From Candidatus Enterousia sp. (GTDB lineage Bacteria > Pseudomonadota > Alphaproteobacteria > Rs-D84), in the NCBI GenBank assembly GCA_045645065.1, contig JAZRIB010000013.1:230-64229 (forward strand): 64,000 bases of DNA, given 5' to 3'. The position numbers were made by a program, and so were the translations under genes. This document shows positions 5,265 to 37,067 of the stretch, piece by piece. Below the pieces are notes generated by a model. It had not been told where the DNA came from. It saw only the letters and a program-made list of their open reading frames with translations, and did no database searches. The stretch's first letter is position 1, and each line of letters starts with the position of its first letter.

Positions 5265-5296
5265 AAAAAAACACCGGCAATTGCCGGCATTTTTTT
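5265..5296. terminator. bidirectional terminator (serves rpsO)
   Basis: A7, stem ccggc/gccgg with aatt loop, then T7. Confidence 0.75.
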
Positions 5297-5297
5297 A

Positions 5298-5570: not shown

Positions 5571-5591
5571 TTGTTTTTCCTTTTGTTTTTT

Positions 5592-6464
5592 TTATATTGT
5601 TCGTTTTGGGTGCAATTTTCCGTCCACGACCGTACCAATTCCAATGAACACGTCATCTGAATATACGCGGCGCAGACCGTCCGCACCCCCTGTCGCGACA
5701 AAGCCGCCATTTTTATACAAAGTGGCCGCCGTGCCGTCAAGATTCACAACCGGAATGTCCCCCAGTCCTGAATCAATTGGTTCCAAGTATTTCTTGAAAT
5801 CGCCACCATTATTAACCAGATTTTCTAAAAAATCAAGTTTTACTGCATTTTTTATTGTAAAACCATTGGTTTGGGTGCGCCTTATCATATCAACCGTTGC
5901 AACGCATCCACACATTTTTGCAATATCGCGGGCAATACTGCGCACGTATGTGCCGCGACTGCACCGCACGCGAAAATGCCAAGATTCATTGCGTACAGAT
6001 AAAAATTCCAGTTCAAAAATTTCAACCTCTCGTGCTGGTATTTCAATTTCACGTCCCCGACGCGCCGCATCATATGCACGCACACCATCAACATGAACAG
6101 CCGAATAAATTGGTGGCGTTTGCATAATTTTACCAATCATTTTTGGTATAACAGACAAAACCATATCTGTTGTCGGCACAATATTATCACGTGCAATTTC
6201 GTGGCCAGTTATATCCAGTGTGTCTGTTTCAAATCCAAATTGGCACGAAAAAAGATATTCTTTGATATTTGAATTTACGGCCTCGATAAACGGTATCATT
6301 TTGGTGGCGTTACCAATTGCAATTGGCAACACCCCAGATGCCATTGGGTCCAGTGTGCCAATATGTCCGAATTTTTTTGTATCAAACATACGCGCAATAC
6401 GTCCCCCTGCTGTTCGTGAAAACAGTCCAGAATCTTTGTCCAAGATAATAAATCCATCCGCCAT
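5592..6464 (-). CDS. truB: tRNA pseudouridine(55) synthase
   Basis: FGHIGTLDPMASGVLPIAIG catalytic Asp motif. It lies upstream of rpsO. Confidence 0.93.
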   Translation of the reverse strand: MADGFIILDKDSGLFSRTAGGRIARMFDTKKFGHIGTLDPMASGVLPIAIGNATKMIPFIEAVNSNIKEYLFSCQFGFETDTLDITGHEIARDNIVPTTDMVLSVIPKMIGKIMQTPPIYSAVHVDGVRAYDAARRGREIEIPAREVEIFELEFLSVRNESWHFRVRCSRGTYVRSIARDIAKMCGCVATVDMIRRTQTNGFTIKNAVKLDFLENLVNNGGDFKKYLEPIDSGLGDIPVVNLDGTAATLYKNGGFVATGGADGLRRVYSDDVFIGIGTVVDGKLHPKRTI

Positions 6465-12294: not shown

Positions 12295-14547
12295 ATGGCC
12301 AAGAAGTTCAACTTTTTATCAGCGTCCGGCAAAGGCAAAGGCCTGGGGATTTTCAAATCTACATCTTACAAAGAGCATGAAAAGACCCCAATGGCGCAAA
12401 TATTCTGGCGAATCCGCTGGGGGTGTGGCATATGGATTGTGTGTGCGCTGGCGTTTGCAACTACTTTTGCGATTGAACATGTCTGGCGTTATGGCTGGTC
12501 CCCGGCCAGTTCGGTTTGGGTAAAAACATATTTTATGAATCTGGTGCACAGTGGCGGATTGTCCGCATTGGCTGAATTGCCATCTTGGGTATGGCGTTGT
12601 GTATATCGGACCGACATGGCATGTATGGTACCGCTGTTACCGATAATCGCATACTATTTCTTGGCAGACGGAACGTTTACAGATGAATTTAACCCACACG
12701 GCAAAGATAAATTTGATGAAAAATCTTCAAACAAAGCAACTGCCGCTGATATAAAACAAATGAACCAGGACTTCCGAAACAAAGATGGTTTATTCAAAGG
12801 GTTTATGATGGTTTTGGGATACTTTAAAAACAAAGGTAAAAGTGTTCCATTAATGTTTGACGAATGTTTATCCGCATTGTGTGTTGCGCCCCCCGGAACC
12901 GGTAAAACAAAGGGGTTTGTTGAACCGACGATTTTAGAATGTGATACTGTATCAATGATTATTAATGACCCAAAACCCGAATTAAAGCAGGAAACCAGCG
13001 GTTATCGTGCAACGGTTGGGCCGGTGTTTATTATGAACTGGGCGGGTCAAGATGACCCTGCACGTGGTATATATTACCCGTCATGGAATCCGTTATCTCC
13101 GGAACACGTACCGTTTAATACCGAACAACGTGATTTGTATATTGATTCAATTTGTAACACATTAATCCCAGACCGTTCGGGATCATCCGCCGACCCACAC
13201 TGGACAATCACGGGTCGTGCGGCATTGACCGGATTTGTTCAATATATAGTGTCCAAGGTTGAACGTGCCAAGGCAGACGATTACTTCTATGCACGCATGG
13301 CAAACGGCACATTTAATGCCGAAGATGCAGCGGTACTTTCTGATTACTATTTGTCTATGATGACCGATCCAAACGCATATGCCGCACACGCAATGTTGCA
13401 ACGTGGGGAATTAAACGCAATGAACTATGTCCATGTTGGAACATGGGCGCATATCCCAGACGTTTGGCGTGGCAAAGAAGCATCTTTTCCAATGATTCTG
13501 GACTGGTTAACCACCAGCCAGATTGATATCGCACGTCAAATGGACGAACGTCGTCGCGCGGGCGATCAAATGGTTATGATGGCCGACCCGCTAAAAGATA
13601 TGTTACAAGAAGCGGTTGCAGAAGCGCAACAATACGCATATTCACATCGTGCAGTCCAAGAATTAACCCAGCTTGCCAACACCCCAGACAAAGAACGTGG
13701 TTCTATTATGTCGACAGCGTTGTCGGGTCTGACTATTTTCCGTAATGCGGCGGTACGCAATCGTACATCACATTCTGATTTTCATTTTTCAGATTTGCGC
13801 GGAATGCGCGATCCACGCGATGGCAAGGTCAAGCCCGTTACGGTCTATTTATCCATAAATATGGTTGATGCCCAGGCATTAAATCCAATTACCGCGATAT
13901 TTATTGAATTAATGTCGAACTTCTTGTTGGCAAATAAACCAGGCGACACGCATAATGGCGAAGAATTGGGGCCGTATCCGGTACTGTTTGTATTGGACGA
14001 AATGCCCAAAATGCAAAAAATGCAGGCCGTTATCCAGGGGCCAGATTTGGGACGTGGACAAAAAATATCATACCTGTTAATTGGCCAGGATTTAAACCAG
14101 ATTGCCGAAAAATATGGGCGTGAAGCCGCTGATACAATCATTTCAACAACTGCTGCAAAAATTGTAATGCGTCAAAACGACCCGAAAAGTGCGGAACGGT
14201 TTTCCGAAATGATGGGTAAAAAAATGAAAAAAGAAAAAGGTGCCGATGGCAAGGAAGTCACCAACGAATCATTGCTTTATACCCCAATGGATATTATGAA
14301 ATTACCAGAAGCGAAACAGTTGGTTATTATTCAGGGACATTATAATCGTCCAATCGAAGCAGACCAAGAAAGATGGTTCTTGAACAAAACACCTGTTCAA
14401 AAAGAATTGTATAAAAAAGTCCAAATGGGCGAAGCACCACCATTACCAGAATTCTTGGTGCCGTCGCATCATCGTGCGCTGGGGTTTGCAGGGACGCCGA
14501 AAATTTATTATCCCGCGACCAAGGAAATCAAGGTTTTATCCGAATAA
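12295..14547 (+). CDS. virD4: type IV secretion system coupling protein (VirD4/TraG family)
   Basis: Two N-terminal TM helices, Walker A APPGTGKTKG, Walker B-like VLFVLDEMPKM, and the conserved LIGQDLNQIAEKYG block. Confidence 0.85.
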   Translation: MAKKFNFLSASGKGKGLGIFKSTSYKEHEKTPMAQIFWRIRWGCGIWIVCALAFATTFAIEHVWRYGWSPASSVWVKTYFMNLVHSGGLSALAELPSWVWRCVYRTDMACMVPLLPIIAYYFLADGTFTDEFNPHGKDKFDEKSSNKATAADIKQMNQDFRNKDGLFKGFMMVLGYFKNKGKSVPLMFDECLSALCVAPPGTGKTKGFVEPTILECDTVSMIINDPKPELKQETSGYRATVGPVFIMNWAGQDDPARGIYYPSWNPLSPEHVPFNTEQRDLYIDSICNTLIPDRSGSSADPHWTITGRAALTGFVQYIVSKVERAKADDYFYARMANGTFNAEDAAVLSDYYLSMMTDPNAYAAHAMLQRGELNAMNYVHVGTWAHIPDVWRGKEASFPMILDWLTTSQIDIARQMDERRRAGDQMVMMADPLKDMLQEAVAEAQQYAYSHRAVQELTQLANTPDKERGSIMSTALSGLTIFRNAAVRNRTSHSDFHFSDLRGMRDPRDGKVKPVTVYLSINMVDAQALNPITAIFIELMSNFLLANKPGDTHNGEELGPYPVLFVLDEMPKMQKMQAVIQGPDLGRGQKISYLLIGQDLNQIAEKYGREAADTIISTTAAKIVMRQNDPKSAERFSEMMGKKMKKEKGADGKEVTNESLLYTPMDIMKLPEAKQLVIIQGHYNRPIEADQERWFLNKTPVQKELYKKVQMGEAPPLPEFLVPSHHRALGFAGTPKIYYPATKEIKVLSE

Positions 14548-24004: not shown

Positions 24005-24670
24005 ATGGCAACAAAATCAAACGTAAATCCAGTTGCAAAAAATTATGCAAAAATTGGAATTATTGCCGCAATTGTTATCGCAGTTGCAGCATGTGGCACA
24101 TGGCTGGTGGCCAGTTTGAATAGTAATTCTGGTGCATCTGTCGAAGAATCGATGGAAATGGTATCTGGCGATGCTGCAAATGCGTCAAATCTGCGTATTG
24201 CTGTAATTCGTATGGATGCGATTCAAACAGACGCTGCGGCATTAAAAGATTTGCGTAAACAGAAAGAAAACTATGAATCTAAATTGCGTGATGAATTAAC
24301 AAAACGCCAGAAAGAACTTGAAAAAGAAAAGACAGAAATCGAAAAATCCCAAGACGTTTTGTCACGCGAAGCATTGCAACGTCGTGTCGTTGATTACCAA
24401 GGACGTGTTAATGATTTGCAACGTGATTTAACAGAACGTGCACAAAGTATTGAAAAATCATACCAGAAAGCATTAAGCGAAGTTCAAACAAAACATTTGG
24501 ACCCAATCATCGAAGGTACAATTGCAAAAAAGAAATTGTCATTGGTTGTTGATGGTCGTTTTGCACGTGTTGGTGCCGATGCAGAAAATCTGGATATAAC
24601 AGAAGAAATCGTAAAAGCTTTGGACAAGAAAGTATCAAAAGTTAAAATGGATACACCAAAGGGTTTCTAA
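24005..24670 (+). CDS. OmpH/Skp-like periplasmic chaperone
   Basis: N-terminal anchor or signal, then a long coiled coil (KQKENYESKLRDELTKRQKELEKEK...) and a terminal LSLVVD block typical of the OmpH family. Confidence 0.7.
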   Translation: MATKSNVNPVAKNYAKIGIIAAIVIAVAACGTWLVASLNSNSGASVEESMEMVSGDAANASNLRIAVIRMDAIQTDAAALKDLRKQKENYESKLRDELTKRQKELEKEKTEIEKSQDVLSREALQRRVVDYQGRVNDLQRDLTERAQSIEKSYQKALSEVQTKHLDPIIEGTIAKKKLSLVVDGRFARVGADAENLDITEEIVKALDKKVSKVKMDTPKGF

Positions 24671-24682: not shown

Positions 24683-24712
24683 AAAAGATTCCCGCCAAAT
24701 GGCGGGTTTTTT
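24683..24712. terminator. bidirectional terminator between the skp-like and OmpA-like genes
   Basis: Stem cccgcc/ggcggg with aaat loop, followed by T6. Confidence 0.75.
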
Positions 24713-25388
24713 ATCGCACAGGCGCAATACGTAATTCAACGCGTCGATTGGTTAAACGTCCGATATCGTCTTGGGCTGCAATAGGGCGGGTTGCGCCACG
24801 TCCTATGATAAACAAACGTGTTGTATTTATGTCATGCTGACTAAAATAAACACCGACCCGTTGTGCCATATCCGCCGACAGCGCATTTGACGCAACTGTA
24901 TTTTGCATTGCGTCTGTATATCCAGCGATTTCAATAAACGTGGCATCGTACTGTTTTAATATTTTACTGATTGTGTTAAGTGTATCGTCGCCTGTTGCAG
25001 ATATTTGCGCGGCATTTAATTCCATAATTGCATCACGCACCAGTACGACAACAACGTCTGTCCCTGCGCGTTGTACGGAAATTCCTGGTTTTCGCAAACT
25101 GTCATAAAGTGCAAATTCCAATTCAGACATATATTTTATAATTCGTGCGTTATCATTTGCTAATTTGTCCCCATATTCTGATACAGGTTTTGTTACATTT
25201 TCATCCAGAATAACACGTCCGCCCGCCCCCAGATATACAGGTCGCTTAGCAATGCGTGCAGTATCAGTCATGTCTGAAAAACTTGCCCCGTTCAAATAAT
25301 GCGTCCATGTTGTGCGTTCCGGACTGGCGTACGGTGCACAAGCACTTAAAACGATTGAAAAAAAACAAAGTGCTAAATTTTTATGCAT
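24711..25388 (-). CDS. lipoprotein with C-terminal OmpA/MotB-like peptidoglycan-binding domain
   Basis: Lipobox VLSAC. C-terminal IEIAGYTDAMQNTVASNALSADMAQRVGVYF...GRLTNRRVELRIAP matches the OmpA_C pattern. Its start is 1 nt after the pilin-like gene stop. Confidence 0.8.
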   Translation of the reverse strand: MHKNLALCFFSIVLSACAPYASPERTTWTHYLNGASFSDMTDTARIAKRPVYLGAGGRVILDENVTKPVSEYGDKLANDNARIIKYMSELEFALYDSLRKPGISVQRAGTDVVVVLVRDAIMELNAAQISATGDDTLNTISKILKQYDATFIEIAGYTDAMQNTVASNALSADMAQRVGVYFSQHDINTTRLFIIGRGATRPIAAQDDIGRLTNRRVELRIAPVR

Positions 25389-25850
25389 TTACTCTATGAT
25401 AAACGATATTTGATTTGTCGGTGTTGAAAAACAGTTGTCTGACCCTGGACGCAATTCGTATCCATTAACAACGATACTGTTTGTCCAATCTGGAATTGCT
25501 GTTGAAAAATAAGCGCATTCACCCTGTGTTAAATCGGTCAAGTTGATTGAAAAATATTGTCCGTCTGCGCTGGGGGTCACAGACCATTGTTCGCCACCCA
25601 GTGGTGACTTGTCAGATTTTAATGCGCCCGCCTTAATCAAATAGTCAACAGAAAGCCCATAATAATCGCCACGCATTTCCATCAATAGTTTTACATCGTT
25701 TGCAATCTGTTTCAATTGTGATGATGCGATTGAACGTGCGTTGTTGTCGCGCATCATGCCGTACATACCGATTGCAGCCGCAACCATAACAGTCCCCACA
25801 GCGATAACGCCAACAATTTCAATCAAAGAACGCCCTGATTCTGCTTTCAT
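25389..25850 (-). CDS. type IV pilin-like protein (PilS-like by recollection)
   Basis: Short basic leader MKAESG, then RSLIEIVGVIAVGTVMVAAAIG (Glu at +5). C-terminal Cys pair (LTQGECAYF ... DNCFS) like a pilin D-region. AGGAG RBS. Its ATG overlaps the dnaX stop (TAATG). Confidence 0.7.
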   Translation of the reverse strand: MKAESGRSLIEIVGVIAVGTVMVAAAIGMYGMMRDNNARSIASSQLKQIANDVKLLMEMRGDYYGLSVDYLIKAGALKSDKSPLGGEQWSVTPSADGQYFSINLTDLTQGECAYFSTAIPDWTNSIVVNGYELRPGSDNCFSTPTNQISFIIE

Positions 25851-27418
25851 TATTTTACTCCTACGATTTCTGCGTTTTCAAACAAACTCATTGCACTGGC
25901 AATCATTGGGTCTGCGGCTAATTCTTCTTGTTTTTGTTCTGTGATTGTATGTGTATGCACAGATTCAACCATTCGTTCCATTTGCCATTGTTTGCCCGTT
26001 TTATCCATTAACCAAGCGGCAAGACGTGGTGCAAAATCTGCATCACCTTTGCGATCAAAGTATTTGATTTTATTATCTGCGATTTCTGCAACTTCTATAT
26101 TGCTGGAATAATACGAATATAACAGTATTTCTTTTGATTCCTGTAACAATTTTGCCAATTCAATTGCCGATGTGATTTGTGGGTATGCCGGTGTGGCGGG
26201 TTGTGTTACCTCTTGTACAGGGGCGCGATTGTTAAGTGCATCACGTACCGCATTTGCATTTGGGCGCGCGTTTGTATCGTTTTGCTTCATTAATTCAGCC
26301 ACCGTTGGCATATCTGCGATATGCATCATACGAATAATTAACATATCAAAGCATTGTTTTTGATTTCCGCTGGCTTGCATTTCTGGGACGGCTGCTACCA
26401 TAACCTGCCAGATACGGGACAGTGTGTTCAGTGTCGCAGTCTTGTTAATTTCACGAATTTGATTTCGTTGGTCGGCGGTATATGGTGAATTTGTAACTTC
26501 GCCTGCGTGCAGACTTGGGTGCATACGCGTTGCCCAATGTGTCCATTCCATCATATCCAGCAACAACATTGATAAATCTGCGCCATTGTTGTAAATCGCG
26601 TCAACTTTTTCCAATGCGGCGGCGGTGTTTCCAGATAACACTGTTTTCATAAAATCTACAACAACCCCGCGGTCGGCGCGCTTTAACATGTCCAGTACAG
26701 ACGCTTCGTCAACGTGACCGCCAGTTTGTGCGATTGCCTGGTCTAGCAAAGATAACCCATCACGCACAGAACCGTCCGCGGCACGTGCTAATAATTCATT
26801 TGCCCCATCAGACAGTTCGATTTGTTCTTGTTCTGCAATCCATGCAAAATGTTTTTTTAATGTATCAACCGGTACACGCATCAAATCAAAACGCTGACAA
26901 CGTGATAAAATAGTTACAGGCACTTTTCTAATTTCTGTCGTAGCCAGAATAAAAATAACATGTGCAGGTGGTTCTTCTAATGTTTTCAACAGCGCATTAA
27001 ATGCACTGGTTGACAGCATATGTACTTCGTCGATGATATAAACTTTATAGCGACCATTTGTCGGGCGGTATTGTGCCGCATCCAGAATATCGCGCATATT
27101 ATCAACACCGGTGTGTGATGCGGCGTCAATTTCCATAACGTCGATATGTTGACCGGCTGCAATTGTGCGACAATTTTCACACGTGCCACATGGTGTTGCG
27201 GTCGCGGTGTCCGATGACAGACAATTTAATGCCTTGGCTAAAATACGTGCTGTACTGGTTTTTCCAGTTCCGCGAATTCCAGTAAAAATATATGCGTGTG
27301 CAATACGTCCTGTATTAATTGCGGTGGTTAATGTTTTAACCAAAACGTCTTGCCCGATAAGTGTTTGAAAATCTTGACTGCGATATTTTCGTGCTAAAAC
27401 TGTATAGTTGCTATCCAT
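25850..27418 (-). CDS. dnaX: DNA polymerase III subunit gamma/tau
   Basis: GIRGTGKTSTARILAKALNC Walker A, zinc module CGTCENC, and IIDEVHMLS. Start set to ATG 27418 (MDSNYTVLARKYR), which has an AAGGAAG RBS. Confidence 0.93.
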   Translation of the reverse strand: MDSNYTVLARKYRSQDFQTLIGQDVLVKTLTTAINTGRIAHAYIFTGIRGTGKTSTARILAKALNCLSSDTATATPCGTCENCRTIAAGQHIDVMEIDAASHTGVDNMRDILDAAQYRPTNGRYKVYIIDEVHMLSTSAFNALLKTLEEPPAHVIFILATTEIRKVPVTILSRCQRFDLMRVPVDTLKKHFAWIAEQEQIELSDGANELLARAADGSVRDGLSLLDQAIAQTGGHVDEASVLDMLKRADRGVVVDFMKTVLSGNTAAALEKVDAIYNNGADLSMLLLDMMEWTHWATRMHPSLHAGEVTNSPYTADQRNQIREINKTATLNTLSRIWQVMVAAVPEMQASGNQKQCFDMLIIRMMHIADMPTVAELMKQNDTNARPNANAVRDALNNRAPVQEVTQPATPAYPQITSAIELAKLLQESKEILLYSYYSSNIEVAEIADNKIKYFDRKGDADFAPRLAAWLMDKTGKQWQMERMVESVHTHTITEQKQEELAADPMIASAMSLFENAEIVGVK

Positions 27419-27497
27419 GCTAAAACTTCCTTTTGACATACAATAGCAAACCAACACTAAATTTCAACAAATAAAGTGTATAAAAGTACGATTTTTA

Positions 27498-27812
27498 TCA
27501 GTTCAAGTTTGTAATAAAATCAGGAAATGGACTTTCTTCGTCTTCTTCTTTGTCGGTTGTATTATTGGCTTCGGCCTCTGCGATTGCTTTTTCGGCGGCG
27601 GGTTTTTCTTTGCTGTCACGGCTGGAATCAATCTTGCCTTGTTCTGCGTTTACAATACGCCCATAGTGTTCAGCGGCCTGTAACAAACGTTCACGTTCGA
27701 TTTCATCTGCGGTTTGGCGCGCTAAGTCTATATATTGTTTTCTTTTCTGACGCCATTTATGACAACGTTGAATCATTTGTCCGACATTGGATTGATTTTT
27801 TTTGTTTTGCAT
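27498..27812 (-). CDS. DUF4167-like alphaproteobacterial protein
   Basis: YIDLARQTADEIERERLLQAAEHYGRIV resembles the conserved Y..LAR.....GD....EN..QHAEHY.R core of DUF4167 (from memory). The rest is basic and low-complexity. Confidence 0.6.
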   Translation of the reverse strand: MQNKKNQSNVGQMIQRCHKWRQKRKQYIDLARQTADEIERERLLQAAEHYGRIVNAEQGKIDSSRDSKEKPAAEKAIAEAEANNTTDKEEDEESPFPDFITNLN

Positions 27813-27964
27813 ATTATTTCTTTTGTTGTATGGAAAGTTTTTCTCTATTAATTTCACATAAATACTGAAATCAACGAAACAGATGTTAATCTATCTGAAA
27901 ACTGATTGCAATATTTTTTTTCTGTTGCTATTCTTGGAATTAAGTAGGGGGGGATATCAAACAA

Positions 27965-29320
27965 TTGCGTAAACAATCTGGTAATTTTCTTGTCCAGGCA
28001 TTATTAGCATTAACGCTGATATTTGCATTTATACCATTTGTTGCGACGCAACTTGCTGCGCGCAATGTTGATGCGCAAATGTATTCTGCCACGCGCCAGA
28101 TAAACAATGCATCGGCTGCGGCGCGTATATTTATCCGTGAAAACGTCCGTCATATTTCTTATGGGCAAACAATTGTAGCGGGCGATGATTTTGCAGATGT
28201 TCTGGAACCTTATGGGCTGCCATTGGGGTTTGTGCCGCGTACCGCCCTTGGCCAGGATATTGTTCTGGTTATGAATAAAACCCCGATGGGGATTTCTGCG
28301 CATCTTGATATAACAGGTGGTGGGTTATCTGAATTAGAATTGGCTGAATTAATACGACGTGTTGGTTTTTATGCATCATCTATTGAAAATGGTATTCGTG
28401 TTGGTGTTGTGTTAACTGATGATTATTCAGACGTTGTTCGTCGTAATGAACTTGATTTAGATAACAGTGGATTTTTAACCAATATTGATTTGGGGAACAA
28501 TTCTTTCTTGAATGCAGGTAACGTGTTTGCTTTGCGTGGCGATTTTGTATCGGGCCAGTTTACAACGTTGTCTATTGTTGGTACAGAATCAGGTCGCAAG
28601 GCGCAAAATGATATAAAAAATATTACAGCCAATAAATCAGTATTTCAAAGTCGTACCGGCGAAGCAGCATTGGCCTTGTTGCGTGGCACATTAAAACTGG
28701 GGACGATGGACGCGCGCACTGTGTCCAAGTTTGGCGAAGGTTCAAACTTTACTGCAAATTCAGCCGCGGTTTCTGATTTTTCAATGACTGCTGGTCGTAC
28801 AGCGTTTACAGGCCCTGCAAAATGGAATGTTCATGGCAATGTTGCAACCAGTAACATCAGTCTTAGTACAGAACGTCTGGATATAGATTCGTATCTAAAT
28901 GTTGCGCGCGGTCAAGATGTGTTTGTTGATGCGGACACGTTGGAATACAGTACAAAAAGTGGAATCGAAGCAGGGACAGTATACGCATCAAATATAACAG
29001 TTCGTGATCAAACGTCCCAGGGTTTAATTGGTGGGGCAGGTGGGGCGACAATCCTTGAAATTCGTCCTGCTGGTGCGTCATTGTTGCCAGATGTTTTAGT
29101 TGATTCTATAAACAATGATAAATTTGCTATTTTGAAAAACCCATCTGCTGATAATGGCGACGTTATCACGTGCAAGGATATTATTATTGATTTTGGTGGT
29201 GTGTATAATTCCAAATCATTGGCGCAAAATTTAATATGCCAATACGTTTTCTGGCAGCGTCTGGAACACAGAATACAAATCAAACAATGTTTAATGGCGG
29301 GTGGCAATGATTGTATTTAA
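27965..29320 (+). CDS. giant pseudopilin-like protein, paralogue 1 (PilV-like by recollection)
   Basis: TTG start behind a G7 RBS. Leader MRKQSG, then NFLVQALLALTLIFAFIPF (Gln at +5). Shares an N-terminal helix, a mid-protein motif (NIDLGNNSFLNAGNV) and length with the next two genes. Four Cys lie in the last 50 residues. Confidence 0.7.
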   Translation: MRKQSGNFLVQALLALTLIFAFIPFVATQLAARNVDAQMYSATRQINNASAAARIFIRENVRHISYGQTIVAGDDFADVLEPYGLPLGFVPRTALGQDIVLVMNKTPMGISAHLDITGGGLSELELAELIRRVGFYASSIENGIRVGVVLTDDYSDVVRRNELDLDNSGFLTNIDLGNNSFLNAGNVFALRGDFVSGQFTTLSIVGTESGRKAQNDIKNITANKSVFQSRTGEAALALLRGTLKLGTMDARTVSKFGEGSNFTANSAAVSDFSMTAGRTAFTGPAKWNVHGNVATSNISLSTERLDIDSYLNVARGQDVFVDADTLEYSTKSGIEAGTVYASNITVRDQTSQGLIGGAGGATILEIRPAGASLLPDVLVDSINNDKFAILKNPSADNGDVITCKDIIIDFGGVYNSKSLAQNLICQYVFWQRLEHRIQIKQCLMAGGNDCI

Positions 29321-30512
29321 TACAAAAATCTTTGCGAACGAAATGCGTGGTGCCAGTGTTATGGAAGTACTATTGGCGCTTGGTATTGTTGCGTTGGCAA
29401 CCCCGTTTGTATACAGTCAAATTTCGCGCAGCACCCAAACAGTACGTGATATGGCGTATGCGCACCAGATTATAGATGTTCGTGACAGTGTTTTGAATTT
29501 TGTTCGCATGAACCAAGATAAATGGCCAGATGTTGCACAAATTCGTCTTGATTCAGAAGAATTGCGTGCGATATCAGATATGCCTGTGGCGGGTCTGATT
29601 GATAAATATTCTGTACGTGGTGCAACGATAACAGATGTGTATTTAGCGTATGAAATAGGCGATGATTTAATGGCAACTGCACGAATTGCGTCACATATTG
29701 GTTCTGATGCGGCGGTTGTGTCTGATGATGGGGTGGCGTATGGCCCGTCATGGGCGGCATCTGCCCCAGATTTTAAGCCTGGGGATTTAGTGTATCGTAT
29801 AACACGTGATGTATCCGGTTCAGATACATCGCAATATTTGCATCGTGCAACATCGGGCGAAGACGAATTAAATGTAATGTTTCGTGATTTGAATATGGGC
29901 GGATACAATGTTTATAATGTTGCGTCTGTTGATGCTGATTCCGTACGTGCCAAAGAAGCAACGGCGTTTTTTGTAAATGCAAATGATATAACGGCTGAAA
30001 ACGTATATTTTTCATCTGGCGCAAACATGGAAGGGGGCGATGTTTTTATTGGAAGTATGCGTGTATCTGGCGATATAACAGGTTTCAGGGATATTTATGC
30101 AGATAAAATGAATGGCACGACATATACAACATCGGGTCGTATTATTGCAGACAAAGCAACTGTAACCAAATCGATAAACATTTCACGGGATTTGGTGTTA
30201 AAATCGGATACATCAAAAACAATCAGTGGTTTTGCAGGTTTGTCGACTGGGACTGTTGTTGCGCCTTTTTTATCAACCGAAGAAATTGTTTTTTATGAAG
30301 ATTTTGGTTTAACTGTATCTGGTGAATTATTGGTATCGACTGTTGCGCCGATTCAGATTGGTCGCTGGGTTTTTCCATCGACAACGCCACCGCGCTTTTC
30401 TAAATTTACAATATCGCGTACTACAAATCCATCAATGCCAGACAAACAAGAATTTGATGCCATAATGAAATCTGGCTGGATGCAGTCCGATGTGATAAAA
30501 CCAACGGAATAA
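29307..30512 (+). CDS. giant pseudopilin-like protein, paralogue 2
   Basis: Leader ...FNTKIFANEMRG, then ASVMEVLLALGIVALATPF (Glu at +5). Motif YLHRATSGEDELNVMFRDLNMGGYNVYNV. The start is uncertain: GTG 29301, ATG 29307 or ATG 29343. Confidence 0.7.
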   Translation: MIVFNTKIFANEMRGASVMEVLLALGIVALATPFVYSQISRSTQTVRDMAYAHQIIDVRDSVLNFVRMNQDKWPDVAQIRLDSEELRAISDMPVAGLIDKYSVRGATITDVYLAYEIGDDLMATARIASHIGSDAAVVSDDGVAYGPSWAASAPDFKPGDLVYRITRDVSGSDTSQYLHRATSGEDELNVMFRDLNMGGYNVYNVASVDADSVRAKEATAFFVNANDITAENVYFSSGANMEGGDVFIGSMRVSGDITGFRDIYADKMNGTTYTTSGRIIADKATVTKSINISRDLVLKSDTSKTISGFAGLSTGTVVAPFLSTEEIVFYEDFGLTVSGELLVSTVAPIQIGRWVFPSTTPPRFSKFTISRTTNPSMPDKQEFDAIMKSGWMQSDVIKPTE

Positions 30513-30513
30513 C

Positions 30514-31845
30514 ATGAAGCAACAAAACAGATTTTTTTCTGACATTATAAACAATTCTGTACGCGGCAGTATGCTGGTTGAATTGCTTTTAAGTGTGGCG
30601 TTGGCGGCATTGGTCATACCGTTTATATTTCAGTATCATCAAAATGCGGCCGTGCGCGCCCAGAATATTGCAATTACACAAAATATGAACGCTGTTCAAA
30701 AAGTTCTGGAACGTTATATTGTTGAAAACCGTTCTGATTTGTTGCGCACAGTTGGTAAAAATATAACACGTGTAAATCCCGAAGAATTATCAGAATACGG
30801 TCTGTCCCCTGTGATATTAGAAAACGCAGACAAATATCAATTGCGGATTCTAAAATCCACAGACGCCACCGGCAGTGCGACCTTGCAAGGGGTTGTTGTT
30901 TATACATCGCCTGATATAACGCCAATTCGTACACGTGAAATTGTAAATATTGGTGGTACGAATATGGGGTTTGTAGATGGCACACGTGCGTATGGTGCGT
31001 ACGGTGCGTGGCGTAATGATATGGCTGATATTGGAATTAATGCCACAGATGGTATTGTTGGCACAACGTCTGTTAAGCGTGATGCTGCGCTGTATTTGGT
31101 ACGATTACCATCAGATAACTTAGATGATGCAACAATGATGTCGCCGCTTAATCTGGGGGGGCATGATATAGTCAATGCAAAATTCTTTGATGCGACATCG
31201 GTCCAGTTTAATGAAGATTTGAATTTGAAAACAGGTGTTGCGCGCGACCTTATCTTTCAAAATCGTACCGCCATAGATACCACTTATACATCCCAGACCG
31301 CAACGGTTGCCGGTGGTTTGTCTGCGGATGGTCGCACGATGGATGTTTCTGGTAAATTCTTGTTGGCAGACATTGGGAAATTTGCATCGTTTACTGTTGG
31401 TGATTTATGGACTACGACAATGACATTGTCTGGGCTGTCGATTGATGCCTATGATGACAGTTATCGTGAACAGCCTGCGATATTAAAGGTTGCAGGTGCG
31501 CTGGATATGATTTCTGGTCGTATAGAAGCGATTTATACGACGGTTGGTTTTGCGGGTTCAATTACACCGCGTTTGGTTGTGTATGACAGAATCGAAGATT
31601 CTCGTAATAAAAACTATTATTGGGATGTTGCGTCGTCTACTGCAAACTTTGCAGATGTAACGCTGGCGGAACTTAATCGTTTGGCGACACTTGCATCACG
31701 TTTTGAACGTGTATCCGGCACAGACAGTACGCAATTGTTTGGTGGTGTTGTCGCAAACAAGAATGCGACAGCAGGCGATTTTATGAATGCGCTTCGTGAA
31801 ATTCAGGTGCGTGTTCGTGCGAAATATAGCCTGTTGAAATTATAA
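30514..31845 (+). CDS. giant pseudopilin-like protein, paralogue 3
   Basis: Leader MKQQNRFFSDIINNSVRG, then SMLVELLLSVALAALVIPF (Glu at +5). Motif LYLVRLPSDNLDDATMMSPLNLGGHDIVNA. It starts 1 nt after the paralogue 2 stop. Confidence 0.72.
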   Translation: MKQQNRFFSDIINNSVRGSMLVELLLSVALAALVIPFIFQYHQNAAVRAQNIAITQNMNAVQKVLERYIVENRSDLLRTVGKNITRVNPEELSEYGLSPVILENADKYQLRILKSTDATGSATLQGVVVYTSPDITPIRTREIVNIGGTNMGFVDGTRAYGAYGAWRNDMADIGINATDGIVGTTSVKRDAALYLVRLPSDNLDDATMMSPLNLGGHDIVNAKFFDATSVQFNEDLNLKTGVARDLIFQNRTAIDTTYTSQTATVAGGLSADGRTMDVSGKFLLADIGKFASFTVGDLWTTTMTLSGLSIDAYDDSYREQPAILKVAGALDMISGRIEAIYTTVGFAGSITPRLVVYDRIEDSRNKNYYWDVASSTANFADVTLAELNRLATLASRFERVSGTDSTQLFGGVVANKNATAGDFMNALREIQVRVRAKYSLLKL

Positions 31846-31870
31846 TAATTTGTGGTATAAGTGGGTTGAT

Positions 31871-32395
31871 ATGAAAATAACATGTGATTTTTGCAAGACA
31901 GAATATAACGTTCAGTCACGTCCAGGTTCGTCTGTTCGTTGTGCGATTTGTGGCAACACTTGGACTGTGCCGGCCCCAGCGCGTAAAAATGCATTTTTAA
32001 TGTTTTTTGCATCGTTGTGCGCACTGTTGTCGGTAATTGTATTTGCGGTTGCGATTGTTGTTACACATAAACCAGACCCAGACCGTGATGCACCATTGAT
32101 TGCACGTGTATCTGGGCATGAAATCATAACAAATGACGATGGTGTTCGTCATTTGGTTGTTTCGGGTACTGTTACCAACAAAACGTCTGATATTTACGGT
32201 ATGCCAGACGTTATGATTGTGTTGCGTGATGCAGATGGTCGTGTCATATCGCACCAGAAATTTATGCCGTCTGCGACATTGATTGATGCGGGTGCGACAT
32301 CGGATTTTAAGTACACTTTGTCTGCACCTGTATCATCAAATATAAAAAGTATAGATGCGCGTTTGATTGTAGATGGGGGGAAAAATGATAAATAA
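31871..32395 (+). CDS. ZitP-like protein: MJ0042-type zinc ribbon + TM helix + DUF3426-like domain
   Basis: MKITCDFCKTEYNVQSRPGSSVRCAICGNTW (CxxC...CxxC), TM FLMFFASLCALLSVIVFAVAIVV, then a beta-rich C-terminal domain (LVVSGTVTNKTSDIYGMPDVMIVLRDADGRVI). Confidence 0.72.
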   Translation: MKITCDFCKTEYNVQSRPGSSVRCAICGNTWTVPAPARKNAFLMFFASLCALLSVIVFAVAIVVTHKPDPDRDAPLIARVSGHEIITNDDGVRHLVVSGTVTNKTSDIYGMPDVMIVLRDADGRVISHQKFMPSATLIDAGATSDFKYTLSAPVSSNIKSIDARLIVDGGKNDK

Positions 32396-32855
32396 AATAC
32401 TAGCGTGTTTGTTTGGTTGTTTTTTTGCTGTATCTGCGTTTGGTGCGTCGTCTGAAAGTCTTGCGCCACGCGTATCGATTTTTTCAACCAGTACTGATTG
32501 GGAAGCGGTCACAGGTCGTATGTTAAATGAATATCATGGTACGTTTCGTGGTAAATCATCATTGATTGGCCGTGGTTTGATGGTGTATTATCTGGACGGT
32601 TTTCCGTGTTATGGTCTGGGCGACAGTGTTCAAGCATGGATAAGCCCCAATGGTGAATCATCACATCGTCTACGCTTGGCGTGTATTGCTGCGCCCCAGA
32701 CAATAAATTTTGCATGGATTCATGCGTCACGTGATGCGGACGACCAGACAACAACAGGTATCATGACGTGCAAGATTCATAGTGACGGTGGACGTGATTT
32801 TGAAATAGATTTGGCTGATTGCACGCGTGGGCCCGATTGGGATGATTATGAATAA
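32385..32855 (+). CDS. small secreted cysteine-containing hypothetical protein
   Basis: Signal peptide MINKILACLFGCFFAVSAFGA and a G6 RBS 4 nt upstream. It overlaps the zitP-like stop by 11 nt. Confidence 0.6.
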   Translation: MINKILACLFGCFFAVSAFGASSESLAPRVSIFSTSTDWEAVTGRMLNEYHGTFRGKSSLIGRGLMVYYLDGFPCYGLGDSVQAWISPNGESSHRLRLACIAAPQTINFAWIHASRDADDQTTTGIMTCKIHSDGGRDFEIDLADCTRGPDWDDYE

Positions 32856-32869
32856 AGGAATTTTTTTAT

Positions 32870-33829
32870 ATGTCAGATGTTCGTGAATTTGTTGTAGATA
32901 GCGAAAATGTTGGTGTTCGTATTGATAAGTTTTTGTCCAACCAAATGCCTGAATTTTCACGCAGTGAAATCCAAAAATTCAACGTAACGCGTTCTGGGAC
33001 ACCGATTAAGTTTTCTGAAAAAACGCGTGTTGGCGATGTGTTTTCTGTGGTTATGCCGACACCTGTGACAGATGTGGCAACTGAAAACATTTCGTCTGAT
33101 TTTGATTTGGAAATCTTGTTCGAAGACGATGATATTATCGTGATTAACAAACCGCGTGGTGTGGTTATGTATCCGTCTGCGGGGAACAAGACTGGGACAT
33201 TGGTTCAAAATATTTTAGCGCATACCCATTTGTCGATGTTGGGTGGTGATGCACGTCCCGGGGTTGTTCATCGTCTGGACAAAGATACCAGTGGCGTCAT
33301 GGTGTTTGCTAAATCAGATGTGGCGTATCGCGCGCTTGTCAAAATGTTTTCAGAACACGATTTAACCCGTAAATATGTATGTTTTGTATGGGGAATTCCA
33401 AATTGGGAAAGTGCGACAATCACTGGCAACATTGCCCGTTCATCGCGCAATCGTCAAAAAATGACAATGGTTAAAACTGGGGGCAAACCTGCGCATACAG
33501 ATGTTGCTGTGATAAATGTGTTTCCGCGTTCAGGTATCAGCCAGTTTCGTTGTACTTTAATGACGGGGCGCACACATCAAATACGTGTTCATTTGTCGTC
33601 GCACGGATTTCCAGTTGTTTGTGATCCAATTTATGGTCGTGGTTCTGCGCGTTTAGGTTCGGTTCGTGATGCAGATTTATTGGAATTCATACGCACACAT
33701 GACGGACAAATGTTGCATGCCGAATTATTGGAATTTGTGCATCCGACGACTGGCGAACTTATGCGTTTCAAAACGCACATACCAGACGATATGTCTGAAT
33801 TAAAATATCTGGTCGAAGAAATCGGATAA
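32870..33829 (+). CDS. rluD: RluA/RluD-family 23S rRNA pseudouridine synthase
   Basis: S4-like N-terminus, catalytic HRLDKDTSGVMVFAKS, and the GRTHQIRVHL motif. Confidence 0.9.
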   Translation: MSDVREFVVDSENVGVRIDKFLSNQMPEFSRSEIQKFNVTRSGTPIKFSEKTRVGDVFSVVMPTPVTDVATENISSDFDLEILFEDDDIIVINKPRGVVMYPSAGNKTGTLVQNILAHTHLSMLGGDARPGVVHRLDKDTSGVMVFAKSDVAYRALVKMFSEHDLTRKYVCFVWGIPNWESATITGNIARSSRNRQKMTMVKTGGKPAHTDVAVINVFPRSGISQFRCTLMTGRTHQIRVHLSSHGFPVVCDPIYGRGSARLGSVRDADLLEFIRTHDGQMLHAELLEFVHPTTGELMRFKTHIPDDMSELKYLVEEIG

Positions 33830-33926: not shown

Positions 33927-36900
33927 ATGGGAATGTCATTCTTTAAAAAATCGGTAAGTGTTTTGGCTGTTTTTGCTGTAATTCCTGCGGCTTTTGCGGT
34001 AACTGCGCGCCCCAGTGTAACGGCGGTTGCAAACACGGCGTCGCGTCGTTTGCCAACGCTGACGGCATATGTAAATTCAGGTACATCCACAACGGTTGGT
34101 ACAACATCGTCTGGGATATCTGATTCTGAATGTGTCGAAGCATACACCGAATGTATGAAATCAGACGAAGTTTGTGGTTCTGATTTTCAGGAATGCACAA
34201 CCCGTAAATTGTTCCACGGTCAAATGCCAAAGTGTTTGAACGTTTTGTCCCAGTGTTCATCATCTGGAATATCTAATTTGTTTGGGACATCTGCGGTTGC
34301 GTCTTTGGGCGCAATCAAGACCCAAGATTCCAAGACTGGTGAAATTCTAGATTATACATACCCAACCGATGGCAGTGTAATGGGTCAATGGGTATCTGCG
34401 GCGGCGATTAATAACCAGTATGATACATCAACATGCGTAAAACGTTATACATCATGTTTGCAAAAAGACAGTGTTTGCGGTGCAGATTTTGAATTGTGCA
34501 CCACAACCAAAGATTTCAAAAAGCAGGCATTGTTCTGTGATTCAACATTGGCGCGTTGTCAAAGTGCCGGGGTCAAAGAATTGTTTGGTGTGTATCCATG
34601 GACACCGTCCAGTGCAACAATTAATGGTCGTGTATCATCTATGATAGAAGATGGTGCAAAACTGGCGGCGTTAAATGCTGTTTCTACATGTTACAAGGTT
34701 GTAGAACAGTGTTTCTTGGGTGCATGTGCAGCCAACCCATTCCGTTGTATCGAAGGGTCAACATTGGATATGGTTGTTGCTGCGAATTTGGCATCTGAAA
34801 CCCCAGAAAACACTACATACATAGAAGAGGGCGCTACATCCACAGGAACTGTTTCAAAAACAGATGTAAATCGTTTCTTGAAAACGTCTTGTTTGGATAC
34901 AATTGGTTCAAACAAGTATTGTCATATGACATTCCGTGAAAAAACACCGACTAAGGGTGAATTAGCCGATATCGACACCCAAGAAGAAGTTTTTGATGCG
35001 GCAATCGACCAGCGTAAAAAATACGTAGATTCCAAGATTCAAGATATTATGCAGAAATTTGACACCCGTGCTAAGGATAAATGTGCCGACACAATCCGTA
35101 CATGCGCAATGCGTACCTGTGGCGAAGGAATTGGTTCGGTCTGTTATACATCTGTGTTTGATGGTAAAAACGAATCTATTAACAAAGAATCTGTACGTGA
35201 ACAAATTAAACGTGGATGTGAATCAATTGTGAATACAGACACGAATTGTCAATATGCGTATTCTGCGGTTAAAAATGAAGCGTATTCATATTCATACTTA
35301 AACGATGGTGTATTTGATACATTGTTCCCAGAATATGACGAAACAAATAAACAAGACCCAATCGGTGTTGTTGCGTCATTGAATTCAACATTGGCGAATA
35401 ATTACAGTATGTCTGCTATTGCAGAAATGAAGAAACAATGCCAATCCGTCGCAAAAAGTTGTGTCAAGACAATGTGTGGCATCGATTACGTAAATTGCTA
35501 TCGCAATCGTACAGATATTTTATCTGATTTGACTAAATCTGGTGATGATGCGTTTGACAAATCAATGAACAAGGTTGGCGGTGTACTGGATTACACAATC
35601 GTATTAGGGCTATGTATGGAAACCGTCAAAGGGGCTGATGTTTGTGATGAACACCTGAAAATAGAACAGGCGCGTCTGGCCCAGGGTGCAAATTTAACAA
35701 ACAATTGGGGCGCATCATCGTCTGTTCGTGATGGCTGGATTGATGCGGGTGGTTCTAAATCTGTAACAGTTGATACAGAAACCGTACAAAAGGTTGATGC
35801 CAACGGTAATCAAATTTGTGCTAATTCCAAAGGGGACGAAGGAATCTGTTATCAAATGGACGCTGATGCGGACGTATATGATGAACCTGTATATCAATCA
35901 TATAAAACATATCTGACGACCCAGGCGGCGACATCTTTGTTCCGTGAACTGATTTCGGACATTGAATACGAAGCCCAGGCAAAATATAATGCGAAACTGA
36001 CGAAACAGCAAAATATGTGTATGTCGGCAAATTCTGGCGGAATCATGGGTCAGAATGATTTGGCATCAACATTTATGTGGGCAAAACTGAAAAATAACAA
36101 AGTTCCAACCAATTATGCATCGGCTGGGTTGAAACCGAACCAGTTTGTGGCCAGCAATGATTTGTATGGTTCGTTCTGTCGTGTACGTGTAAATGTTCAG
36201 TCTGATAACAAAGATATCCAGGATGCTATTAACAAAGGTGCAGATTGGGCAACGGCATACTTTGCCGCCGGCGACAGTTTCACCTGTGGCAGTTGGATAA
36301 GCAGTTCAGATCTTGAAAAAATTGCAAAAATCGTTGGCGAAGATGCACGTAATAATGCGGAATTGTCCCAGAAAGAAAATCTGAAATGGTGGTTGGCGCC
36401 ATTGGGTGCGGTTGCATCTGGTGTTGGCGGTGCTTATCTGGGGGCGGGTATTGCAAACGGTGACGTATTTGGCAAATTATCCGGCCTGAACCCGAACAGA
36501 AAAGCAGGCAACACAGAAAGGGCGATTAATCTTTGTAAGAATCATGTGGCAGATGTGCAGAAATATACAGGAACGGATTTAGTTTCGTCTGCTTATAATG
36601 CAATTAAAGTTGCAAGAGAATTAGATGTGGTTTCAACAGTCATTCAAAAAGCAGTAGAAGAAACAGACGACTATGAATCCAAATATAAAGAATATGAAGA
36701 TTGTATCGAAAAAAATAAAAAGGAATCGGGTAGTTGTACAAAATCAAATCCGTCTGTACAAGTTGTTAGAGATAGATTGCTTTCATTAGGTGAGGCATGC
36801 GAAGCTGTTAAAGGTGAAGAAAAAGATAAAGCAGATACAATAAAAGGTACCAAAATTGCGGCGGGTGTAACCGGTGGCGTGTCTGCGGTTGCAGGTGGCG

Positions 36901-37067
36901 TGTTGACGTACTTTGCTACAAAATCAATCCAGCAAGAAAATCTGGATAAAACACAACAGGCTGCATATCAAAAGTTTATGGATGAAATTGGCAACCATAT
37001 CTATTGCTATATCGGTGGCGAAGAAGCCGGTCAATACGGTGACGTCATCACCACCAGTATGGAATAA
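33927..37067 (+). CDS. large secreted cysteine-rich repeat protein with two Gly-rich C-terminal hydrophobic helices (no recognisable family)
   Basis: Signal peptide ...VFAVIPAAFA|VT, GGAG RBS, and about 40 Cys by manual count arranged in repeated fixed-spacing modules. C-terminal WWLAPLGAVASGVGGAYLGAGIA and IAAGVTGGVSAVAGGVLTYFA. Confidence 0.8.
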   Translation: MGMSFFKKSVSVLAVFAVIPAAFAVTARPSVTAVANTASRRLPTLTAYVNSGTSTTVGTTSSGISDSECVEAYTECMKSDEVCGSDFQECTTRKLFHGQMPKCLNVLSQCSSSGISNLFGTSAVASLGAIKTQDSKTGEILDYTYPTDGSVMGQWVSAAAINNQYDTSTCVKRYTSCLQKDSVCGADFELCTTTKDFKKQALFCDSTLARCQSAGVKELFGVYPWTPSSATINGRVSSMIEDGAKLAALNAVSTCYKVVEQCFLGACAANPFRCIEGSTLDMVVAANLASETPENTTYIEEGATSTGTVSKTDVNRFLKTSCLDTIGSNKYCHMTFREKTPTKGELADIDTQEEVFDAAIDQRKKYVDSKIQDIMQKFDTRAKDKCADTIRTCAMRTCGEGIGSVCYTSVFDGKNESINKESVREQIKRGCESIVNTDTNCQYAYSAVKNEAYSYSYLNDGVFDTLFPEYDETNKQDPIGVVASLNSTLANNYSMSAIAEMKKQCQSVAKSCVKTMCGIDYVNCYRNRTDILSDLTKSGDDAFDKSMNKVGGVLDYTIVLGLCMETVKGADVCDEHLKIEQARLAQGANLTNNWGASSSVRDGWIDAGGSKSVTVDTETVQKVDANGNQICANSKGDEGICYQMDADADVYDEPVYQSYKTYLTTQAATSLFRELISDIEYEAQAKYNAKLTKQQNMCMSANSGGIMGQNDLASTFMWAKLKNNKVPTNYASAGLKPNQFVASNDLYGSFCRVRVNVQSDNKDIQDAINKGADWATAYFAAGDSFTCGSWISSSDLEKIAKIVGEDARNNAELSQKENLKWWLAPLGAVASGVGGAYLGAGIANGDVFGKLSGLNPNRKAGNTERAINLCKNHVADVQKYTGTDLVSSAYNAIKVARELDVVSTVIQKAVEETDDYESKYKEYEDCIEKNKKESGSCTKSNPSVQVVRDRLLSLGEACEAVKGEEKDKADTIKGTKIAAGVTGGVSAVAGGVLTYFATKSIQQENLDKTQQAAYQKFMDEIGNHIYCYIGGEEAGQYGDVITTSME
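34128..34286 (+). repeat. six-Cys module copy 1 (protein-level repeat, residues 68-120)
   Basis: ECVEAYTECMKSDEVCGSDFQECTTRKLFHGQMPKCLNVLSQCSSSGISNLFG; spacing C-x6-C-x6-C-x6-C-x12-C-x6-C. Confidence 0.85.
34431..34589 (+). repeat. six-Cys module copy 2 (residues 169-221)
   Basis: TCVKRYTSCLQKDSVCGADFELCTTTKDFKKQALFCDSTLARCQSAGVKELFG has Cys spacing identical to copy 1, although the DNA has diverged. Confidence 0.85.

Follow-up and report, generated by a model that had tools for sequence, protein, structure and literature searches.

A putative chromosomal type IVb pilus of the R64 PilS/PilV kind, dispersed among housekeeping operons in the gut symbiont Candidatus Enterousia

Among the described relatives of the system considered here, the closest are the conjugative thin pilus of the IncI plasmids R64 and TP114 and the pil2 pilus of PAPI-1, in which PilS is the major pilin, PilV the tip adhesin and PilN-O-P-Q-R the machinery. 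Their PilV adhesins bind recipient lipopolysaccharide (LPS), and those of the plasmids also hold paired cells together in the gut (PMC9045228, PMC5297154). Another group includes the toxin-coregulated pilus (TCP) of Vibrio cholerae and the CFA/III or Longus pili of enterotoxigenic Escherichia coli (ETEC). Large type IVb minor pilins have been located at the filament tip (PMC5207764, PMC6048534), and in TCP and CFA/III one such protein is present as a homotrimer (PMC6048534, PMC9565799). The locus described below lies in a 64,000-nucleotide stretch of Candidatus Enterousia sp. (contig JAZRIB010000013.1, positions 230 to 64,229 of the forward strand; hereafter the window). The best reading, with a probability that we put at about 0.8, is of a pilin module that belongs to a type IVb pilus encoded on the chromosome and of the same kind as the PilS/PilV pilus of R64, with the genes of this pilus scattered and fused into housekeeping operons. 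What would be new is the combination: a type IVb pilus that is chromosomal and scattered, lacks a shufflon and has three PilV paralogues, in a gut symbiont with a reduced genome.

Candidatus Enterousia and its order, Rs-D84, are widespread gut Alphaproteobacteria that have not been cultured and have genomes of ~0.75-1.0 Mb. Flagella, several glycolytic enzymes, the tricarboxylic acid cycle, respiration and standard transporters are missing from them, and a dependence on partner cells is probable (PMC12306168). Homologues of the 153-aa pilin-like protein of the window come from uncultured gut Alphaproteobacteria, are 144-171 aa long (nearly all 152-153) and are 58-99% identical. Among species-representative genomes, 214 stretches carry the gene, of which the best 80 were used. 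These are labelled mostly Candidatus Enterousia or "Alphaproteobacteria bacterium", derive from ruminant, human and other guts, and include a closed chromosome of 958,618 bp. The window belongs to a subclade of about 10 species with pilins 73-84% identical to its own (L011-L018, L020); pilins of the main clade are ~58-64% identical to that of the window and the respective DnaX proteins 76-81%. Orthologue counts given below refer to 90 loci, and conservation of the large proteins to ~70 species-level orthologues of each.

Two divergent arms make up the locus (Table 1), and the open reading frames (ORFs) and coordinates claimed for it in a preliminary description, made from the letters alone, were all confirmed in the ORF list. 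The four pilin-like proteins, one in the minus arm and three in the plus arm, each carry the class III leader motif: a charged leader, Gly at -1, a hydrophobic helix and Glu or Gln at +5. In the 153-aa protein, Gly6 (-1), Glu11 (+5), C112 and C140 are invariant across 27 homologues. The AlphaFold model of this protein (mean predicted local distance difference test score, pLDDT, 78.6) places residues 9-60 in a helix of 52 residues, followed by a four-strand sheet, which corresponds to the predicted lollipop fold of a pilin, namely a long N-terminal helix on an antiparallel sheet with a C-terminal disulfide. The best Foldseek matches of the model were TcpA (E=3e-5, TM-score 0.70), the ETEC type IVb pilus, CofA and Salmonella PilS, with a probability of 1.0 for TcpA, CofA and PilS. 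Profile searches of the PDB with the 153-aa family returned pilin N-terminal helices and TcpA only, besides two matches at chance level (E>1), and an E. coli plasmid type IVb pilin matches the protein weakly (phmmer, E ~6e-4). Judged by its modelled fold, the 153-aa protein is thus a major pilin of the type IVb kind.

The three large proteins have their cleavage-site residues at G6/Q11 (451 aa), G17/E22 (403 aa) and G18/E23 (443 aa). Gly(-1) and Glu/Gln(+5) are at least 95% conserved among the orthologues of each and invariant in subsets of 25 sequences; given this, and the invariance in the 27 homologues of the smaller pilin, the leader motifs quoted in the preliminary description are both correct and not a product of chance. 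In blastp, the 403-aa protein shows itself to be a distant paralogue of the 443-aa one (2e-9 over 304 aa), and the profile of the 451-aa family (A5) aligns with the 443-aa family in hhalign at a probability of 98.7% (E=4.5e-16). Similarity among the three spans the first ~200 residues, while the C-terminal halves are unrelated. Outside the genus, hhalign pairs the profile of the 443-aa family (A4) with PilV, the tip adhesin encoded on a plasmid from Bordetella, across 215 columns (probability 87.7%, E=3.4e-6), an alignment that takes in the motif LNLGGHDI / LSLGGNAI, and A5 matches the same protein at 85.9% (E=5e-6). The Pfam domain Shufflon_N (PF04917) was found in 2 of 25 members of the 443-aa family (best E=5.8e-6) and in 3 of 24 members of the 451-aa family (best E=7e-7), and a tblastn search with PilV reaches the 443-aa gene (E=6e-4). 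For the 403-aa protein, NCBIfam GspI was matched by the N-terminus alone (E=0.025, 15 bits against a cutoff of 44). The 451-aa protein has four conserved Cys at its C-terminus and is represented by just 74 representative clusters among 1.84 billion proteins. PDB sequence-profile searches returned no homologue for the globular parts of the three large proteins. The structure check called for by the preliminary description has two outcomes, a lollipop fold for the 153-aa protein and a single-sequence AlphaFold2 model of the 443-aa protein at a pLDDT of 37, so that support for a pilin domain in the large proteins comes from profiles only. From these comparisons, the three proteins of 400-450 aa emerge as paralogous PilV-like minor pilins with a Shufflon_N-like N-terminal pilin domain. 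The label "pseudopilin-like" that they had been given is replaced accordingly: they are not of the Gsp type, and the system to which they belong is a type IVb one of the R64 PilS/PilV kind. The assignment of all four proteins to the pilin class holds, on the invariant residues, the fold model and the PilV profile matches. The 451-aa protein, in which Glu5 is missing, is a candidate for the tip-most subunit.

A shufflon was considered for this locus and rejected. Only short repeats at chance level, and no sfx-like repeats, occur in positions 27400-33000, and no recombinase gene is present among the ORFs listed for the locus region; three separate full-length paralogues are found instead.

No pilus assembly machine is encoded in the window. 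A Pfam scan of about 50 of the 66 ORFs of at least 140 aa (those judged likely genes, with shadow ORFs left out) detected no T2SSE ATPase, T2SSF platform, secretin or A24 prepilin peptidase in the 64 kb, and tblastn and phmmer searches of the window with E. coli Gsp/Hof and plasmid type IVb references likewise found no machinery, both of which agree with the preliminary description. What the scan did yield was housekeeping genes (accBC, mreB, truB, mutS, parAB, gidB, gpsA, der, skp, rlmN, surA, lptD/FG, nusA, infB, mdh, sodB and mur/fts genes) together with a lone VirD4 and ComFC.

The machinery occurs elsewhere in the genus. When the best 80 genome loci were searched with E. coli GspE, tblastn matched the flanks of the pilin locus in three species (L024, L049 and L081), where, counted from the end of the pilin gene, a PilO gene starts after ~1.5 kb and an ATPase gene after ~3.5 kb. 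The gene order in these species is pilin - OmpA - OmpH - PilO - 233-aa protein - T2SSE ATPase - T2SSF platform, with Pfam matches to PAP_PilO (PF06864) at 8e-8, T2SSE at 1.6e-61 and T2SSF at 1.3e-28, and the ATPase is 31% identical to E. coli GspE. In other species inspected (L093-L095, L159), this set of four genes comes after lpxK-lpxC and is itself followed by gyrB or aspS. The contig JAZLCH010000005.1 carries both this motor operon (L095) and a fully syntenic pilin locus (L027), ~85 kb apart. Further afield, the best 120 of 5,735 ATPase clusters (E<=1e-30) are 87-100% identical to the query, and 80 additional metagenome ATPase loci (L097-L176) contained a detectable PilO in 61 cases and a platform gene in 66.

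The Enterousia PilO protein matches "type 4b pilus protein PilO2" on plasmids, and the reference plasmid operons (L096, L179) show the same order of PilO2 - PilP - ATPase - platform with a PilS-type pilin adjoining, and in the Bordetella operon PilV as well. Together, the PilO2 match and this shared order identify the system as a type IVb pilus of the R64/PAPI-1 kind. No similarity to PilP could be detected in the small protein that takes the place of PilP in the Enterousia module. A PilO2 - PilP-like - T2SSE - T2SSF module was thus found in other Enterousia species and not in the window. The pilus is split between at least the pilin/minor-pilin locus, as in the window, and a motor locus, in a genome of ~0.9 Mb. 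The preliminary description had offered a choice between a dispersed pilus wired into housekeeping operons and some undescribed use of pilin-fold proteins. The presence of the module elsewhere on the chromosome of relatives supports the former; with machinery in relatives, the latter is unneeded and unlikely, and the locus probably does not reflect a new use of pilin proteins.

When set beside the R64, TP114 and PAPI-1 systems, the Enterousia system shares PilO2, a small protein, T2SSE and T2SSF in order, a small PilS-like pilin with a type IVb fold, minor pilins of ~400-450 aa with a Shufflon_N/PilV-like N-terminal domain and, in a related Rs-D84 lineage, a TcpQ-domain protein and a PilN-family secretin. 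It differs from them in being chromosomal and vertically inherited in a reduced genome, and not part of a plasmid or an integrative and conjugative element; in having its genes in at least three loci, within dnaX, rluD and lpxK-lpxC operons; and in possessing three fixed PilV paralogues, not one PilV with a shufflon (Rci recombinase and sfx sites). The short leader and +1 Arg of the major pilin, discussed below, also set it apart. No PilU peptidase, PilT transglycosylase or second ATPase was found for Enterousia, and its conserved partners are an OmpA lipoprotein and a ZitP-like protein.

With TCP and CFA/III, the likeness lies in the major pilin, for which TcpA and CofA are the best structural matches, in minor pilins of ~400-500 aa that combine a pilin domain with extra C-terminal domains, in a TcpQ-domain protein beside the secretin of the related Rs-D84 lineage and, by position only, in a gene for a small secreted protein in the minor-pilin operon. 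However, three different paralogues occur in Enterousia where those systems have a homotrimer, the large proteins showed no sequence similarity to TcpB or CofB in PDB profile searches, the 160-aa secreted protein is unlike TcpF or CofJ, and the major pilin is much smaller.

The pseudopilus of the type II secretion system (T2SS; GspG and GspH-I-J-K) resembles the Enterousia proteins in its class III signal peptides and in its GspE/GspF-family ATPase and platform. GspK lacks Glu5, as does one Enterousia minor subunit. In contrast, only the N-terminal helix of GspI is matched in Enterousia, the fold and profile matches go to type IVb pilins and PilV, and the accessory protein is the type IVb-specific PilO2. 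An identity as a T2SS was rejected, since in all the fetched DNA tblastn detected none of GspC, GspL and GspM, and it is PilO2 that occurs in their stead.

Synteny of the two arms extends over ~70 or more species, and purifying selection acts on both. Orthologues of the locus genes are present in 71-78 of the 90 loci and a dnaX orthologue in 85, and the order dnaX-pilin-ompA was identical in every locus inspected gene by gene. Ratios of nonsynonymous to synonymous substitution (dN/dS) of ~0.04-0.2 were obtained for all seven locus genes against close relatives, with dS near saturation. The OmpA lipoprotein gene lies directly 3′ of the pilin gene in 90 of 90 loci at 64-100% identity (dN/dS 0.04-0.11); its product has an NCBIfam match to the YiaD-like family below cutoff (E=2.6e-27) and is a probable envelope anchor of the pilus system.

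The ZitP-like protein has an MJ0042-type CxxC...CxxC zinc ribbon, one transmembrane helix and a DUF3426/FxLYD-like beta domain. It scores above cutoff for TIGR02098 (E=2.5e-5, 23.9 bits against 20.9), matches Pfam Zn_ribbon_4 at E=2e-6, and falls below cutoff for DUF3426 (E=4.5e-4, 20.7 bits against 27.7) and FxLYD (21.9 bits against 23). The Cys residues, transmembrane helix and C-domain are conserved in 69 orthologues. The Met at 31871 is the probable conserved start. The Caulobacter ZitP-CpaM system is alike in having a bitopic, pilus-linked protein with an N-terminal MJ0042-type zinc ribbon and a DUF3426-like C-domain (PMC5182063); there, however, the pilus is a Tad (type IVc) one, whereas here it is type IVb, the DUF3426 match is sub-threshold and the gene lies within the minor-pilin operon. 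The 160-aa protein has no Pfam or NCBIfam match. Its gene, the last specific one of the plus arm ahead of rluD, is conserved in 71 loci, with motifs kept across 68 distinct orthologues and a dN/dS of 0.07-0.17.

Table 1. Features of the pilin locus in window coordinates
Feature	Coordinates	Strand	Remarks
Terminator-like GC hairpin, bidirectional	24691..24706	.	Predicted by consensus scan; between convergent ompA-like and skp/ompH genes
OmpA-domain peptidoglycan-binding lipoprotein, lipobox LSAC	24711..25388	-	Pfam OmpA E=6e-12
Predicted major type IVb-like pilin (PilS-like), 153 aa	25389..25850	-	Leader MKAESG, then RSLIE
dnaX (DNA polymerase III tau/gamma), first gene of minus arm	25850..27457	-	Pfam DNA_pol3_delta2/gamma3 on orthologues
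DUF4167-like small basic protein, 5′ of dnaX	27498..27857	-	Pfam DUF4167 E=0.002, sub-threshold
Divergent intergenic region, 107 bp	27858..27964	.	Separates DUF4167/dnaX arm from minor-pilin arm
Predicted PilV-like minor pilin 1, 451 aa	27965..29320	+	Leader MRKQSG, then NFLVQ (Gln at +5)
Predicted PilV-like minor pilin 2, 403 aa	29301..30512	+	~17-residue leader ending RG, then ASVME
Predicted PilV-like minor pilin 3, 443 aa	30514..31845	+	18-residue leader ending RG, then SMLVE
ZitP-like bitopic protein, Zn-ribbon/DUF3426	31850..32395	+	TIGR02098 above cutoff
Small secreted or periplasmic protein, 160 aa, four conserved Cys	32373..32855	+	Signal peptide
rluD (pseudouridine synthase), closes plus arm	32870..33829	+	PseudoU_synth_2 on orthologues

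Within the minus arm, the end of dnaX and the beginning of the pilin gene overlap by 1 nt, and ompA begins directly where the pilin gene ends; the hairpin is predicted from its sequence to be the terminator that ends this dnaX-pilin-ompA arm. A G-rich ribosome-binding site is predicted 5′ of the TTG start at 27965. The DUF4167-like gene, conserved in 81 of 90 loci, is a context gene only. The neighbouring skp/ompH gene (24005-24670, plus strand) is inverted relative to the main clade, where it lies 3′ of ompA on the same strand, so that a rearrangement breakpoint adjoins the pilin arm in the window's subclade. At the other end, directly 3′ of rluD, a gene on the plus strand (33927-37067) encodes a secreted Cys-rich protein of 1046 aa without a Pfam match; main-clade relatives (L007-L010) have a 1051-aa gene at this position. 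The 1046-aa protein may be a surface or adhesin protein tied to the locus.

Several observations weigh against the type IVb reading. In the window's own proteins the family signatures are faint: the 153-aa protein falls below the Pfam cutoffs for PilS (E=0.0085, 16.6 bits against 22) and N_methyl (PF07963; E=0.31, 11.1 bits against 21.2), the three large proteins of the window have no Pfam N_methyl match, and no Shufflon_N match was reported for them, their PilV-type character appearing at the family level only. The profile searches that the preliminary description had proposed thus returned PilS, N_methyl and GspI matches, all sub-threshold, and nothing above cutoff for the window's four proteins. 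The major pilin is also atypical. Type IVb major pilins typically have a leader of ~13-30 residues and a size of ~180-200 aa, and type IV pilins usually begin with Phe, Met, Leu, Ser or similar at +1. Here, the leader has six residues, the mature pilin is 147 aa, and the +1 residue is Arg (residue 7, codon 25830-25832), which is kept in at least 90% of the 153-aa family and replaced by Ala in one cluster.

The machinery presents further difficulties for that reading. Neither an ATPase nor a platform gene was found in the window, in the 4 kb past its right end or in the 10-kb flanks of nine genomes of its subclade, and a search for genes shared between the subclade loci and the 80 ATPase loci gave no link to machinery. 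Of course, the motor operon can lie far from the pilin locus in the main clade (~85 kb in the single case measured), so its absence from a 64-kb window is expected. No A24 prepilin peptidase was detected in the window or in ~2.6 Mb of fetched, redundant Enterousia DNA by Pfam, by phmmer (E. coli GspO and plasmid A24) or by the GxGDxK motif. Only a deeper Rs-D84 lineage (L159, L177, L178 and L180), removed from the main clade by identities of 59% for LpxC and 44% for PilO, yielded a secretin of the PilN family together with a TcpQ-domain partner; within reachable DNA, neither the main clade nor the window's subclade yielded one, and Enterousia proper may have a very divergent secretin or none. 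Finally, the adhesive function, the tip location and the roles suggested for the OmpA, ZitP-like and 160-aa proteins are all drawn from analogy and gene order alone.

The secretin itself has just 37 related clusters in 5.8 billion proteins, all of them fragments of 125-393 aa. Its frame is broken in two independent contigs, by an in-frame TAA in L177 (gene at 4014-5645) and by a frameshift in L180 (gene at 3640-5269), which could reflect decay, phase variation or assembly error. A short inversion was suspected in L180, where a stretch of ~45 nt is scrambled at the frameshift; on inspection it is not a clean inversion. In L159, a protein with an ART-PolyVal ADP-ribosyltransferase domain (1697-2356, minus strand) is encoded between the secretin and the lpxK-PilO-ATPase region.

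These gaps bear on several other explanations. It is possible, at low odds, that Enterousia proper, window included, has type IVb pilins with an inner-membrane core only (PilO2, PilP-like protein, ATPase and platform), having lost the PilN/TcpQ secretin and the dedicated A24 peptidase, parts of which the deeper Rs-D84 lineage would retain. In such a case the filament would stay periplasmic or would cross the outer membrane without a secretin, for example via the OmpA lipoprotein or other outer-membrane proteins, and some non-canonical enzyme would have to process the pilin with its Arg at +1. Another explanation, in which the window's lineage lacks the machinery altogether and its orphan pilins act without a motor, for example as membrane-anchored periplasmic or surface proteins, would accommodate the empty 64 kb, right-hand 4 kb and subclade flanks, the missing A24 peptidase and the fact that the Rs-D84 survey notes type IV pili for another lineage only (PMC12306168). 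We regard it as very improbable, because the DNA sampled amounts to <10% of a genome, because main-clade species with the same two-arm synteny have a distant ATPase operon, and because the window's own subclade combines a low dN/dS with invariance of the two residues that matter for cleavage and filament packing, Gly(-1) and Glu(+5). Least credible of all is the notion that the N-termini are ordinary Sec signal peptides or transmembrane anchors with a superficial resemblance to pilins. The sub-threshold N_methyl and PilS scores of the window sequences would suit it, but the predicted type IVb fold with its Foldseek probability of 1.0 to TcpA, CofA and PilS, the PilV profile matches, the invariant spacing of G(-1) and E(+5) in four families and the type IVb assembly genes in the genus, next to the pilin gene in three species, all speak against it.

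Other alternatives accept the filament and question its use. It could serve mainly as a secretion piston of the T2SS or TCP/CFA-III sort that exports the 160-aa protein, the 1046-aa Cys protein or both, since type IVb pili are known to export operon-encoded partners, TcpF via TcpB and CofJ via CofB (PMC9565799, PMC10120004, PMC6048534). A conserved small secreted protein at the end of the minor-pilin operon, and the large secreted Cys-rich protein 3′ of rluD in all relatives with enough flank, would be the candidate cargo. Yet neither protein has homology to TcpF, CofJ or any other family, GspC/L/M were not detected in the fetched DNA, and the nearest relatives of the large proteins are PilV adhesins, all of which makes a mainly secretory filament unlikely; secretion and adhesion can, moreover, coexist. 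A DNA-uptake (competence) pilus that feeds a nucleotide-poor cell with a reduced genome is a decidedly improbable further option. In Patescibacteria, type IV pili are a proposed route of DNA uptake. The lifestyle of Enterousia has been compared to that of Patescibacteria (PMC12306168). ComFC is encoded in the window (63005-63724, plus strand), and DprA (L178 3932-4954) lies ~3 kb 3′ of the secretin gene. But ComF and DprA are widespread in non-competent bacteria, neither ComEC nor ComEA was seen in the DNA examined (no whole-genome search was made), known competence pili are of type IVa or Com type rather than PilS/PilV-type type IVb, and PilV-like adhesin domains favour cell binding.

Under the preferred reading, that of a scattered type IVb pilus of the PilS/PilV kind, a prepilin peptidase would cut after the conserved Gly, and the ATPase and platform, with PilO2, would polymerise the 153-aa pilin. 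The three PilV-like proteins would prime assembly and occupy the filament tip, with the Gln(+5) protein top-most in the manner of GspK-type caps that lack Glu5. Nothing lies above the first subunit to call for Glu5, as has been argued for such caps. The three fixed tandem variants could stand in for the swapping of C-termini by a shufflon. The OmpA lipoprotein would anchor the apparatus to peptidoglycan, and the ZitP-like protein might help to place or assemble the machine, much as Caulobacter ZitP acts in pilus biogenesis (PMC5182063). The pilus would then attach to surface structures of partner cells; attachment of this kind is most likely its job because, by analogy, the PilV adhesins of R64, TP114 and PAPI-1 bind recipient LPS.

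Some further genes were recorded in the course of this work. A gene for a VirD4 coupling protein stands alone in the window (12295-14547, plus strand), and VirB4 occurs 8-9 kb 5′ of the pilus ATPase gene in L093 (1-1873) and L095 (1-1384), with a faint VirB3-like match in L095. The pattern resembles that of IncI plasmids, with a VirB-type type IV secretion system, here apparently scattered, alongside a type IVb pilus. An ORF of 479 aa (61572-63011, plus strand) between murG and comFC, in the position expected for murC, has no Pfam match at E<=1e-3, and its subclade orthologues are just 70-74% identical. Just past the right end of the window (L182 2969-6046) are genes for a secreted Cys-rich protein of 400 aa and for two paralogous proteins of 280 and 263 aa that resemble outer-membrane beta-barrels; the three have no recorded Pfam matches and are conserved in several Enterousia species.

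The Rs-D84 survey, which mentions type IV pilus genes for a different lineage only, reported no pili for Enterousia (PMC12306168), and the locus is a testable candidate for partner attachment. A partner-binding pilus would fit the partner-dependent lifestyle proposed for these metabolically stripped cells. It would also mean that a kind of pilus otherwise known from plasmids and genomic islands can persist scattered among essential chromosomal operons, and the question of its secretin and peptidase makes Enterousia useful for asking what a type IV filament machine minimally needs.

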